From contig JAICEW010000018.1 of the NCBI GenBank assembly GCA_025923995.1, positions 1 to 37,167 of the forward strand: a DNA stretch of 37,167 nucleotides. The letters run 5' to 3'. Of this stretch, positions 28,367 through 31,229 are shown in pieces (within the stretch, counting starts at the first letter, position 1; each line of letters starts with the position of its first letter). This stretch comes from Vicinamibacteria bacterium. GTDB taxonomy: Bacteria; Acidobacteriota; Vicinamibacteria; Fen-336. A program made the position numbers and the translations under genes. The notes beneath the pieces are model-generated. The model worked only from the letters and a program-made list of their open reading frames with translations, searched no databases and was not told the DNA's origin.

Positions 28367-29427
28367 CCCTGGTCGCCCGGCCCCTCCGGGCGCGCGAGCT
28401 GCGCGCCCGCAGCCGGGGGATCCGGTGGCTGAGGCACCTGGTCCAGGCAGGCGCCGCGGTCCTGGTCCTGTGGATCGGATGGGACTTCGTACTGTGGGTC
28501 CGCGGCCTGGAGTCCGGACAGATGACAGCCCAGCGCCCGCCCGGCGTCGAGGGCTTCCTCCCGATCGCCGCGCTCATGAGCCTGCGCCACCTGTGGAGCG
28601 CCGCCGAGGTCCATCCGGTGCACCCCGCGGGCCTCGTGATCCTGCTGGCGATCGTCGGCACCGGCCTCGTGCTCAAGAAGGCGTTCTGCTCGTGGCTGTG
28701 CCCGGTGGGGACGATCGCGGAGATGCTGGCCTCGGTCGGCCTCACGGCCTTCGCCCGGCGCGTCCGGCTGCCGAGGGCGCTGGACCTGCCGCTGCGCGGG
28801 GTGAAGTACCTGCTGCTGCTCTTCTTCGTCCACGCCATCTTCGTCGCCCTGTCCCCCAGCGCGATCGCCGCCTTCCTGGACGCGCCCTACAACCGGGTGG
28901 CGGACGTGAAGATGCTGTACTTCTTCGAGCGGCTCTCGCCGTTCGCGCTCAAGGTCCTCGCGTTCCTGGTCGTGCTGTCGATGGTCGTTCCCTTCGCCTG
29001 GTGCCGCTACCTCTGCCCGTATGGTGCCCTGCTGGGGGCGCTGTCCCTGCTCTCGCCGCTCAAGGTCACGCGCCACGCGCCGTCGTGCATCGACTGCGGC
29101 CTGTGCACGAAGGCCTGCCCATCGCTCCTGCCCGTCCATCGCCTCGGGCGCGTCCGTTCGGACGAGTGCTCCGCGTGCCTGTCGTGCGTGGCGGCGTGCC
29201 CCGTCCCGCGCGCGTTGCGCGTGGAGACGCCCCGGCCGTGGCGGCGCGCGGTCCGGCCCGCCGCCTTCGCGTGTCTCGTCCTGCTGCTGTTCGGCGGCAC
29301 CATCCAGGCCGCCCGGGTCTGGGGCGTGTGGCGGAACGCCATCACAGACGCGGAGTACGCCGAGCGCCTGCGGGAGATCGACTCCTACGACCACCTGCGC
29401 GGCGGCGAGCCGTCCGGGGGATCGTAG
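28363..29427 (+). CDS. NapH/NosR(C-terminal)-like membrane polyferredoxin (4Fe-4S binding)
   Basis: TM helices alternate with CSWLCPVG and CRYLCPYG motifs, then two ferredoxin motifs CIDCGLCTKACP and CSACLSCVAACP. The ATG overlaps the hemerythrin stop (ATGA). It has no FMN-binding N-terminal domain. Confidence 0.8.
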   Translation: MTLVARPLRARELRARSRGIRWLRHLVQAGAAVLVLWIGWDFVLWVRGLESGQMTAQRPPGVEGFLPIAALMSLRHLWSAAEVHPVHPAGLVILLAIVGTGLVLKKAFCSWLCPVGTIAEMLASVGLTAFARRVRLPRALDLPLRGVKYLLLLFFVHAIFVALSPSAIAAFLDAPYNRVADVKMLYFFERLSPFALKVLAFLVVLSMVVPFAWCRYLCPYGALLGALSLLSPLKVTRHAPSCIDCGLCTKACPSLLPVHRLGRVRSDECSACLSCVAACPVPRALRVETPRPWRRAVRPAAFACLVLLLFGGTIQAARVWGVWRNAITDAEYAERLREIDSYDHLRGGEPSGGS

Positions 29428-30464
29428 GCGCACAGCGGGTCCTCGGCGAACGCGTCGCCGGTCGCCGCGAAGGCGCGGGAACGGGATCCACCGCAGACCG
29501 CGCGCAGCTCGCAGCGGCCGCAGCGGCCGCCCAGCGCGTCGGGGTCGCGCAGGCGCCTGAAGACCGGGTCGTCGCGGTAGGTCTGGACCAGCCGTCCCTC
29601 GCGCGCGTTGCCGCGCGCCATGGGAAGGAACCCGCTCGGGCAGACGTTCCCGACGTGGTCCACGAAGGCGAACCCGTTGCCGTCGTTGACCGCGCGGGGC
29701 GCGCGCAGCTGCCGGCGGCCGAGGCTGGTCGTGGTGGCGCCCGCGCGCTCGCTGGCCATCTGGATCCGGCGATAGTGGGGCGCCTCGGTCGTCTTGATCC
29801 CGAAGGGGACCCGGCGCGAGAGGTCGTCCAGGAAGCGCAGCACGTCCTCGCACTCGTGGGGCGTGATCTGCTCGAGGCTCGCGCCTCGGCCCGTCTGCAC
29901 CAGGAAGAACGCGGCCCACAGCGTGAGCGGGAACGTCGCCACCCGCTCCGCCAGCTCGGGCAGGTGCGGGAGCGTCAGGCGGCTCACGGTCGAGTTGACC
30001 TGGAGCGGCAGCCCGAGACCGATCACCGCATCGATGATCTTCATCGTGTTCGCGTACGAGCCCTTCACGCGCCGGAACGCGTCGTGGCTCTCGGGGTCCG
30101 GGCCGTCGAGGCTCACCGCGACGCGCGAGAGGCCGGCCGCCTTCAGCTCCTCGAGCCGGGCGCGCGTCGCCATCGCGGTGCCGCTGGGGGTGAGCGCGAC
30201 CGTGAGCCCGATCCGCGTCGCATGGCCCACCAGCTCCGCCAGGTCCTTGCGCCACATCGGGTCGCCGCCGGTGAGGACGAGCAGGGGAGGCGGCGTCCCG
30301 AACGCGCGGATCTGATCGAGCAGGTGGAAGCCTTCCTCCGTGCCGAGCTCGCGCGGGTCCCGGCGGGCGATGGCGTCGGCGCGGCAGTGCACGCAGCTGA
30401 GCGCGCAGGCGCGCGTCACCTCCCAGATGACCAGGAAGGGCGTCCGGTCGAAGTCGACGACCAT
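29385..30464 (-). CDS. Radical SAM protein with partial SPASM/twitch C-terminal Cys motif (NirJ/AhbD/PqqE-like subfamily)
   Basis: It has the CxxxCxxC cluster in [17 protein letters not shown] and C-terminal [12 protein letters not shown] plus further Cys. There is no Shine-Dalgarno sequence. The Fnr-type box is centred exactly 41.5 bp upstream of the ATG. Confidence 0.8.
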   Translation of the reverse strand: [359 protein letters not shown]

Positions 30465-30498
30465 GGCCGATGGTCGGACGATCCGCGCTCCCGGCCCA

Positions 30499-30512
30499 TG
30501 ACGGCCGTCATA
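30499..30512. promoter_or_regulatory. Fnr/Dnr-type box ATGACGGCCGTCAT between the divergent radical-SAM and methyltransferase genes
   Basis: It is a perfect 14-bp palindrome. Its centre is 41.5 bp from the rSAM ATG and 40.5 bp from the methyltransferase ATG at 30546. Confidence 0.6.
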
Positions 30513-30545
30513 CGCACGGGAGGCGGGGCGGCGCGATGATGGAGC

Positions 30546-31229
30546 ATGGACCCACTGGCCGGCTCGTCCTGGAGCGCGCCCGCGACGGTGGCCGGCTTCG
30601 CTCGCTCGTCGCCGAACGAGGTGCTGATGCGCTTCGCCCAGGATCACCTGGGCCGCATCGGCGGCGGGCGGCTGCTGGATCTCGGGTGCGGCGCCGGCCG
30701 CAACGCCGTGCCGCTCGCGCGCGAGGGCTGGGAGGTCCTGGGAACGGATCTGTCGTGGCCCATGCTGCGCGCCGCAAAGCGCCGCGTCGAGGACGAGGGC
30801 CTCGGGCGCCGCCTCCGGCTCGCCCTGGCGCCCATGGACCTCGTGCCGGCCGCGGACCGCGGCTTCGACGTCGTGGTCGCTCACGGGATCTGGAACCTCG
30901 CGCGTTCTTCCGCGGAGTTCCGGCGCGCCGTGGCGGAGGCGGCTCGCGTGGCGCGCAGAGGGGCCCGCCTCTTCGTGTTCACGTTCTCCCGCCACACGCT
31001 TCCGCCCGAGGCGGAGCCCGTCGCCGGCGAGCCGTTCGTCTTCACGGACTTCTCGGGCGAGCCCCAGTGCTTCCTCAGCGCGGAGCAGCTCGCGGCGGAG
31101 CTCGGCCAGGCCGGCTTCGTCCCGGACCCGGAGGTTCCGCTGACCGAGTACAACCGCCCCGCGCCGGGTCTCACGCGCGTGGGCGGGCCGCCGGTCATCT
31201 ACGAAGCGCTGTTCCGCCGCTCCGACTGA
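30546..31229 (+). CDS. Class I SAM-dependent methyltransferase
   Basis: Motif I is LLDLGCGAGRNAVPLA, and an acidic motif II and post-I region are present. The start is uncertain: ATG 30546 has a weak RBS, while ATG 30627 (MRFAQ...) has GAGG 5 nt upstream. Confidence 0.7.
   Translation: MDPLAGSSWSAPATVAGFARSSPNEVLMRFAQDHLGRIGGGRLLDLGCGAGRNAVPLAREGWEVLGTDLSWPMLRAAKRRVEDEGLGRRLRLALAPMDLVPAADRGFDVVVAHGIWNLARSSAEFRRAVAEAARVARRGARLFVFTFSRHTLPPEAEPVAGEPFVFTDFSGEPQCFLSAEQLAAELGQAGFVPDPEVPLTEYNRPAPGLTRVGGPPVIYEALFRRSD

Follow-up and report, generated by a model that had tools for sequence, protein, structure and literature searches.

What a radical S-adenosylmethionine (SAM) enzyme might be doing beside a nitrous oxide (N2O) reductase locus is the question raised by the stretch of DNA analysed here, positions 1–37,167 of contig JAICEW010000018.1 from a Vicinamibacteria bacterium (the window; G+C content 71%). 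The radical-SAM gene (29385–30464, minus strand, 359 aa) is divergent from a gene for a class I SAM-dependent methyltransferase (30546–31229, plus strand, 227 aa; Pfam Methyltransf_25/11/12), with a spacer of 81 bp between them, and the pair stands beside the nos operon with the coordinates given in an initial annotation made from the DNA alone. It is most likely that the radical-SAM gene joins a known enzyme family rather than opening a new cofactor or peptide pathway. From its sequence and context, it probably encodes a haem b synthase of the AhbD type that needs no oxygen and would be co-induced with the genes of N2O respiration.

The placement of the radical-SAM protein was approached through the NCBIfam models. 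It passes the curated cutoff of TIGR04053, an AhbD-like family, with 451.2 bits against 395 (E 2.9e-135), residues 3–349 being aligned to positions 1–366 of the 366 in the model. The second-best model is that of the AhbD haem b synthase, TIGR04545 (303.2 bits), which is also aligned from end to end (residues 11–349 against positions 1–339 of 339), and TIGR04053 is a sister family of AhbD. The scores on the NirJ and AhbC models are far under cutoff (NirJ2 188 vs. 500, NirJ 156 vs. 515, AhbC 149 vs. 650), as are those on the models of peptide-derived cofactor enzymes (PqqE 116 vs. 381, MftC 100 vs. 265) and on those of maturases of ribosomally synthesised and post-translationally modified peptides (RiPPs). 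On these scores a NirJ/haem d1 or a PqqE identity was ruled out. The broader assignment to a NirJ/AhbD/PqqE-like group made in the initial annotation holds. Homologues number in the thousands, the best 120 being 70–91% identical, and relatives from Haloferax, Haloarcula, Neobacillus, Methylomirabilis, Gaiella and Chloroflexota also pass the TIGR04053 cutoff with 450–504 bits. No paper naming TIGR04053 was found in a literature search.

The cysteine motifs lead to the same neighbourhood of the superfamily. The radical-SAM cluster motif W-x-x-T-R-A-C-x3-C-x-H-C is present, with the CX3CX2C cysteines as C20-ALS-C24-VH-C27, and there is a C-terminal CX2CX5CX20C motif, C315-GR-C318-ELRAV-C324-X20-C345. 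All of these cysteines are invariant in an alignment of 12 sequences, in which the upstream Cys of GNVCPSG is variable, being F or Y in relatives. A full SPASM domain, with two auxiliary clusters, was taken to have seven or eight Cys in the arrangement CX9-15GX4C ... CX2CX5CX3C ... C together with a Pfam SPASM match. The protein lacks this arrangement: Ser327 occupies the position of the fourth Cys of the CX2CX5CX2-3C block, and Radical_SAM is the only Pfam family matched at E <= 0.001, with no full SPASM match. Given this Pfam result and the CX2CX5C that is present, the initial wording of a partial SPASM motif was a fair description. All AhbDs carry CX3CX2C and a C-terminal CX2CX5CX20-38C, and one biochemically unstudied AhbD subgroup is without the cysteines of auxiliary cluster I (AuxI) and has a conserved Ser and Glu instead (PMC10452713). 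The window protein has the general AhbD signature, and as it is without AuxI cysteines it is placed in the subgroup with AuxII only, with which its sequence is consistent. There is no AhbD structure in the PDB, and sequence and fold searches with the protein return only generic SPASM/twitch enzymes (BlsE, PqqE, SuiB, SkfB).

Such resemblances invite the reading that the enzyme is a SPASM-type RiPP or peptide maturase, or a PqqE/MftC-like maker of a peptide-derived cofactor; in fold and sequence it recalls PqqE, SuiB, SkfB and anSME, as all SPASM/twitch enzymes do, and it gives weak matches to several maturase models. A RiPP-like peptide had been among the products first proposed for it. The maturase, PqqE and MftC models are, however, all far below cutoff, just one auxiliary-cluster motif is present, and there is neither room nor an open reading frame (ORF) for a precursor. 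A short-ORF search around the genes, where the gaps are 81, 7 and 73 bp, found no small precursor-type ORF with Cys, the sole mostly intergenic small ORF being Cys-free, which agrees with the earlier remark that no precursor-peptide gene lies nearby. Among the recurrent neighbours of TIGR04053 genes in other genomes, described below, there is likewise no small conserved ORF, the smallest recurrent family being DUF2249 (approximately 78 aa). With the lack of room for a precursor gene, the TIGR04053 membership and the haem-operon context of the family, the RiPP proposal falls away, and a maturase or peptide-cofactor role for the enzyme is highly improbable.

Genetic evidence for a role in haem synthesis comes from a haloarchaeon. 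The ahbD gene of H. volcanii (Haloferax; HVO_2144) is located among nirK, a halocyanin gene and norB and has a palindromic regulator site in common with genes of denitrification. The deletion mutant has a growth defect in anaerobic culture only, in denitrification and dimethyl sulfoxide (DMSO) respiration alike, and is rescued by protohaem fully for DMSO respiration and partially for denitrification (PMC5746218). In Haloferax sp. Q22 the order nirK-[gene]-halocyanin-norB is as in H. volcanii, and the product of that gene scores 504 bits on TIGR04053, bears TIGR04053 as its NCBI name and is 51% identical to the window protein. Reviews expect an AhbD-like radical-SAM enzyme as the anaerobic substitute for the coproheme decarboxylase ChdC in organisms with the coproporphyrin pathway (PMC10114771; PMC13564367). 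Judged by its sequences, TIGR04053 (AhbD-like, AuxII only) would appear to be this missing O2-independent coproheme decarboxylase of the haem reviews.

Gene neighbourhoods of the family were compared in 85 loci, of which 80 came from a scan of GTDB species genomes and four from around close homologues, with the window itself as the last; ORFs lying up to 5 kb from the radical-SAM gene were grouped into clusters, and those that recurred were annotated. Two contexts dominate, haem biosynthesis and denitrification. HemY adjoins the TIGR04053 gene, at a median distance of 38 bp, in nine loci from Bacillaceae, Sporosarcina, Nocardioidaceae, Chloroflexota and Armatimonadota, and HemB and HemE are each a neighbour in six. 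A Chloroflexota metagenome-assembled genome (MAG) has the order hemA-hemC-hemD-hemB-[TIGR04053]-hemE-hemY (L060), and an Anaerolineaceae MAG (L041) has hemD-hemB-[TIGR04053]-chdC-hemE-...-hemH-hemY-hemL, where the TIGR04053 gene is part of a complete coproporphyrin-pathway operon and stands beside the aerobic coproheme decarboxylase gene. The gene that comes next in L046 passes the protoporphyrinogen oxidase (HemY-family) model (577 bits, cutoff 560). On the denitrification side, the neighbours include NirK in 10 loci, NorB in five and a Crp-family gene in 11, and nosZ is found within 10 kb in six loci besides the window. An operon of GltD-like, cytochrome b, multihaem c and nosZ genes is divergent from the TIGR04053 gene in an Acidobacteria MAG (L015), and the nos gene order of the window adjoins TIGR04053 both there and in L001, the closest related contig, which also retains the cupin-methyltransferase-radical-SAM order. 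Homologues of the Crp-family regulator, 55–70% identical, lie within 10 kb of TIGR04053 in nine related loci.

The initial annotation had held that a clean classification into a pathway such as haem biosynthesis would set the gene apart from N2O respiration. The TIGR04053 match is clean and haem biosynthesis is essentially where it leads; haem is needed in anaerobic respiration, however, so this classification is not unrelated to the nos locus.

Other genes also adjoin TIGR04053. The commonest neighbour of all, in 14 of the 85 loci (Acidobacteriota, Methylomirabilota, Bacillaceae and haloarchaea), is an uncharacterised membrane protein family, here called C1, of approximately 430 aa with approximately 12 transmembrane segments, conserved His-containing motifs and no Pfam or NCBIfam match. 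Its genes, all outside the window, include L015:10948-12417, L024:8694-9995, L046:12564-13823, L083:3300-4685 and L085:8678-9973. In two Vicinamibacteria loci (L002 and L003) a hemerythrin-domain gene also adjoins TIGR04053 (DUF438-hemerythrin-PAS, directly upstream), and a second radical-SAM gene of 409 aa (L002:10096-11325, L003:11143-12372), which belongs to NCBIfam NF045502, 'variant_rSAM', comes directly after the TIGR04053 gene and before a Crp-family gene.

The neighbourhoods also bear on whether the gene pair serves N2O reductase directly, through a radical-SAM enzyme that provides sulfide for the CuZ centre or a methyltransferase that makes a methylated quinone for the Rieske/cytochrome b complex, both of which had been put forward in the initial annotation. 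The two genes do lie near the nos operon with a regulatory box in common, and there are the six other loci with nosZ close to TIGR04053. Against this, the family is beside nirK or norB without nosZ just as often as beside nosZ, and in Bacillaceae, Chloroflexota, Armatimonadota and Actinomycetota it occurs in haem operons or beside hemY with no nos genes. For the CuZ sulfide proposal nothing was found beyond proximity, the family being equally common without nos genes. As for the quinone, the methyltransferase scores 49 bits on MenG/UbiE against cutoffs of 158–327 and its fold matches are generic, so that this proposal is not supported either. Direct service to N2O reductase is thus a very remote prospect for the pair. 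Assignment of the radical-SAM gene to anaerobic haem supply removes a false lead on CuZ biogenesis, and moves what appeared to be an orphan enzyme beside nosZ into a known slot, the anaerobic supply of haem for the cytochromes of N2O respiration.

Another reading stays within tetrapyrrole chemistry. The TIGR04053 enzyme would be a modifier akin to AhbD, AhbC and NirJ that acts on another substrate or gives another product and, perhaps with the methyltransferase, would make or remodel a modified haem for denitrification enzymes. In its favour, TIGR04053 is kept separate from the AhbD model, whose cutoff the protein fails, and one copy of the family comes from a MAG labelled Betaproteobacteria, a setting in which coproheme would not be expected as an intermediate. 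Three loci (the window, L001 and L034) link TIGR04053 with an orthologue of the methyltransferase, which in L034 is directly downstream of TIGR04053 and before norB. However, the family is present inside ordinary haem b operons beside chdC, hemH, hemY and hemE, and plain protohaem rescues the Haloferax mutant (PMC5746218). The methyltransferase is near the radical-SAM gene in just three of the 85 loci and pairs elsewhere with DUF59/FeS_assembly_P, and neither cd1 nitrite reductase (nirS) nor haem d1 genes were found in the window, from which pqq genes are absent too. A modified haem is on balance an unlikely product.

Whether the proposed haem synthase would be induced together with the nos genes depends on the region between the divergent genes. 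The 81-bp spacer holds a perfect palindrome, ATGACGGCCGTCAT, at 30498–30511, with the 12-mer core TGACGGCCGTCA at 30499–30510, which is a putative operator of CRP/FNR-family type common to the radical-SAM and methyltransferase genes. Its layout is 5-4-5, ATGAC-N4-GTCAT with a TGAC-N4-GTCA core, and the canonical TTGAT-N4-ATCAA is not matched. The exact 12-mer is present in three copies (27700, 30499 and 31617), each of them intergenic. The copy at 27700–27711, located between the hemerythrin gene and the nos operon, faces the hemerythrin/NapH-like operon, and that at 31617–31628 is upstream of the cupin gene. Two variant boxes keep the GTCAT arms: TGACCGTCGTCA (27635–27646), which is centred 49.5 bp upstream of the GltD-like gene that opens the nos operon (start 27591), and TGACAGGCGTCA (7082–7093), which precedes a DUF6448 gene. 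All five boxes, three exact and two variant, are in promoter regions. The looser pattern TGAYN4RTCA was seen seven times in the window against 0.86 expected, and seven was reached in none of 100 shuffles.

The position of the boxes relative to the genes is also consistent. The centre of the spacer box is 40.5 bp from the ATG of the radical-SAM gene and 41.5 bp from that of the methyltransferase gene, and the centre of the cupin-side box is 41.5 bp from the cupin ATG. A consensus scan of 29300–31700 for sigma-70 promoters and terminators returned nothing; a strict consensus is ill-suited to a genome of 71% GC, and -10-like hexamers were therefore measured relative to the box. An xAxxxT hexamer starts 30–31 nt past the box centre in five of the six gene-facing directions, against a background of 0.037 (two-offset test). 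These hexamers are GACCAT, GATGAT, TAGGGT (at the -10 position of the cupin side), GACACT (where a -10 is expected from the nos-side variant) and CACAAT, while CATAAC is found at the corresponding place in the sixth direction, that of the hemerythrin gene. Four other directions have no gene start next to them, and one of these, the minus-strand side of the 7082 box, also shows an xAxxxT hexamer there (CACGCT). The predicted box-to-hexamer spacing is that expected of class II CRP/FNR-dependent promoters. As the ATG of the radical-SAM, methyltransferase and cupin genes each starts 6–7 nt after the -10-like hexamer, their sequences suggest leaderless transcripts made from promoters of class II type.

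A candidate for the protein that binds the boxes is encoded in the window. The Crp/Fnr-family regulator gene at 13897–14583 (minus strand; Pfam cNMP_binding and HTH_Crp_2) has FixK as its best NCBIfam match, below cutoff, and its product has the recognition helix TIETCIRLM and is without the N-terminal cysteine cluster of FNR. FNR reads E-T-I-S-R at the recognition-helix position where the local regulator reads E-T-C-I-R. With such a helix and no Cys cluster the regulator is classed as FixK/Dnr-like and not as an O2-sensing FNR, and it is probably this protein that would bind the box. The defining features of an operator of the CRP/FNR family were taken to be a 14-bp 5-4-5 inverted repeat at approximately -41.5, its repetition in a regulon and the presence of a Crp-family regulator. 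These are all found in the sequence, the binding itself being predicted only, while the two marks of FNR proper, the N-terminal Cys cluster and TTGAT-N4-ATCAA, are found in neither the local regulator nor the box. Of the single shared Fnr box that had first been described, the shared palindrome and its 5-4-5 CRP/FNR-family form therefore stand and the attribution to FNR does not; with a TGAC/GTCA core and a regulator without the Cys motif, it is a CRP/FNR-family box of the FixK/Dnr-like kind.

The box is not confined to the window. It is found 46 bp upstream of the radical-SAM orthologue in L001, and in 26 of 81 loci the 250 bp upstream of the TIGR04053 gene contain a TGAY-N4-RTCA box (background 0.026 per 250 bp); these loci include most of the closest relatives (Vicinamibacterales and the Betaproteobacteria MAG). 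Together with the repeated identical boxes and the consistent promoter geometry, this retention upstream of orthologues supports the earlier proposal that the gene is likely to be co-regulated with nosZ. Inclusion of the cupin gene in the box regulon is likewise probable, and the DUF6448 gene (7151–7768, plus strand) probably belongs there too. In L001 a DUF6448 gene comes directly after nosZ; given this and the variant box upstream of the window copy, DUF6448 looks like an unrecognised nos-associated protein. The TGAC-N4-GTCA box, conserved over TIGR04053 in soil Acidobacteriota-like denitrifiers and N2O reducers, could serve as a regulon marker.

Taken as an anaerobic haem synthase, the enzyme would work as follows. 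By homology to characterised AhbD, the [4Fe-4S] cluster on CX3CX2C would split SAM to give a 5'-deoxyadenosyl radical, which would drive the stepwise oxidative decarboxylation of the propionates on rings A and B of coproheme to vinyls, yielding protohaem, with the single auxiliary cluster (CX2CX5CX20C) as a possible outlet for the leftover electron. The FixK/Dnr-like activator, probably that from 13897–14583, would bind the ATGAC-N4-GTCAT boxes at a class-II-like position approximately 41.5 bp upstream of the predicted transcription start. Its putative regulon would comprise the nos operon, the hemerythrin/NapH-like operon and the DUF6448, cupin, radical-SAM and methyltransferase genes. With the radical-SAM gene in one regulon with the nos operon, haem synthesis could persist without O2, and the supply would continue when O2-dependent or H2O2-dependent haem steps cannot run. 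Haem would then be available when the chain for N2O respiration (cytochrome b, multihaem c and Rieske protein) is built under anoxia.

A number of points weigh against this assignment. The protein, at 303.2 bits, misses the curated TIGR04545 cutoff of 500 and is for that reason filed as AhbD-like (TIGR04053) and not as a TIGR04545 member, and TIGR04053 is a separate NCBI family without an assigned function, for no member of which a biochemical assay was found in the literature. The genetic evidence concerns HVO_2144, which is put in TIGR04053 through a congeneric orthologue and gene order rather than its own sequence. There are no other haem genes on the 37-kb contig, so a coproheme route in this organism is not demonstrated; literature searches yielded nothing useful on which haem pathway Acidobacteria or Gemmatimonadetes use, and nothing relevant on AhbD with nosZ. 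Both the co-regulation and the identity of the regulator are drawn from sequence only. Finally, a TIGR04053 gene whose product is 72% identical to the window protein is found in a Betaproteobacteria-labelled MAG (L004/L006, JBLMXQ010000008.1). Betaproteobacteria normally use the protoporphyrin route without coproheme. The neighbours of this copy are genes for pyruvate:ferredoxin oxidoreductase, dihydroorotate dehydrogenase and a universal stress protein, and a TGATCGGCGTCA box is 80 bp upstream of it. The high identity and the upstream box suggest that the gene may have been transferred horizontally along with its regulatory logic.

What remains of the divergent pair is the methyltransferase, for which all NCBIfam matches are far below cutoff; with MenG/UbiE at 49–50 bits against 158–327, a UbiE/MenG identity was ruled out. 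It belongs to a well-conserved but uncharacterised orthologue group (homologues 69–100% identical), and its predicted fold (mean predicted local distance difference test score 83) resembles generic small-molecule methyltransferases such as MitM, Ecm18, NmbA and TleD, so the fold search did not narrow its substrate. In the three loci where it is linked to TIGR04053 it is divergent in two (the window and L001) and on the same strand in one, L034, where a single strand carries Crp-[TIGR04053]-methyltransferase-norB. Elsewhere its divergent neighbour is a DUF59/FeS_assembly_P gene, and the surrounding 8 kb hold no radical-SAM gene. Linkage in only three of 85 loci marks it as a co-regulated gene and not an obligatory partner. 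The Cupin_2 protein gene (31237–31581, minus strand, 114 aa; Pfam Cupin_2) has its own box upstream, and both genes would on this evidence be co-regulated passengers, presumably acting on small molecules. C1 comes directly after the methyltransferase orthologue in L085, with Crp-family, NorB-like and copper-oxidase-domain genes further on.

The regulon includes several proteins without an assigned role, namely the methyltransferase, the cupin, the DUF6448 protein and, at related loci, C1. A more ambitious proposal would join TIGR04053, the methyltransferase, the cupin and C1 as a previously unrecognised denitrification accessory module under CRP/FNR control, whose role might be to produce or supply a modified tetrapyrrole or, under anoxia and nitric oxide stress, to place haem in the respiratory complexes of the membrane; we regard this as quite unlikely.

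The remaining genes of the window give the setting of the pair. Between the nos operon and the radical-SAM gene are a hemerythrin-domain gene (27761–28366, plus strand; Pfam Hemerythrin) and a gene for a NapH/NosH-like membrane 4Fe-4S protein (28363–29427, plus strand; Pfam Fer4_5), which is convergent with the radical-SAM gene, the two 3' ends overlapping by 43 bp. Their NCBIfam matches, weak YtfE/RIC-like ones for the hemerythrin protein and NapH-family ones for the other, are all below cutoff. These two genes, the first weakly like the YtfE/RIC/DnrN iron-sulfur-repair proteins and the second a membrane ferredoxin gene, form one operon that an exact box precedes. Beyond the cupin gene there are glycoside hydrolase and sulfatase genes. 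An Rfam scan found no riboswitch or other RNA family near the genes, its sole match being a tRNA at 6225–6292; tRNA-His (GTG) at 6222–6294 and tRNA-Tyr (GTA) at 6594–6683 are both on the minus strand.

The nos operon, as annotated with Pfam (14601–27591, minus strand), starts at 27591 and runs down to approximately 14600. Its first genes encode a GltD-like FeS flavoprotein, a Rieske protein, cytochrome b, a multihaem cytochrome c and NosZ (20634–22505), and these are followed by a 208-aa protein without a family match, NosD, an ABC-2 (NosY-like) protein, a fasciclin protein and an FGE-sulfatase-domain protein. The first gene (25645–27591) encodes a fusion protein in which a 2x[4Fe-4S] ferredoxin domain is joined to a GltD-like NAD(P)-binding FeS flavoprotein. 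Placed before the Rieske and cytochrome b genes and kept in L001 and L015, it is an unusual electron-input module for a nosZ cluster of clade II type. No recognisable nosL was seen at the operon. Its tail (14601–16298) carries the fasciclin-domain and FGE-sulfatase-domain genes, with weak EgtB/SenA-like matches, and either product could be an alternative copper- or sulfur-handling accessory.

When set beside known systems, the proposed enzyme shares parts with each. With ChdC (HemQ), the coproheme decarboxylase, it would share the same net reaction, and chdC is directly beside TIGR04053 in L041; ChdC, however, has a chlorite-dismutase-like fold and H2O2-dependent chemistry, with no sequence similarity to TIGR04053. 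In proteobacterial denitrifiers the anaerobic haem gene hemN is controlled by FNR, Anr, Dnr or FixK. The likeness here is an O2-independent radical-SAM haem enzyme under a CRP/FNR-family activator with denitrification genes, but HemN/CgdH acts on coproporphyrinogen III and is not of SPASM type, and in the window the box core is TGAC-N4-GTCA, not TTGAT-N4-ATCAA, with a local regulator that has no FNR cysteine cluster. AhbD itself (TIGR04545), characterised in Methanosarcina barkeri and Desulfovibrio vulgaris, has full-length homology to the window protein (303 bits, positions 1–339) and the same two motifs, CX3CX2C and C-terminal CX2CX5CX20-38C, and by analogy the same reaction, coproheme to protohaem without O2, may be proposed. 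It differs in that the window protein is below the 500-bit cutoff and in the sister family TIGR04053, is without the AuxI cysteines that M. barkeri AhbD has, and has no ahbA, ahbB or ahbC near its gene. For H. volcanii ahbD the host is archaeal and obtains coproheme via the siroheme route, the palindrome is CGAA-N4-TTCG with another regulator, the neighbours are nirK and norB and not nosZ, and no methyltransferase partner has been described. It nevertheless offers a close parallel, with a congeneric orthologue that belongs to TIGR04053 (504 bits) and shares 51% identity with the window protein, and with its location in a denitrification cluster, a palindromic site shared with respiratory genes, a need for the gene that is anaerobic only and rescue by haem (PMC5746218).

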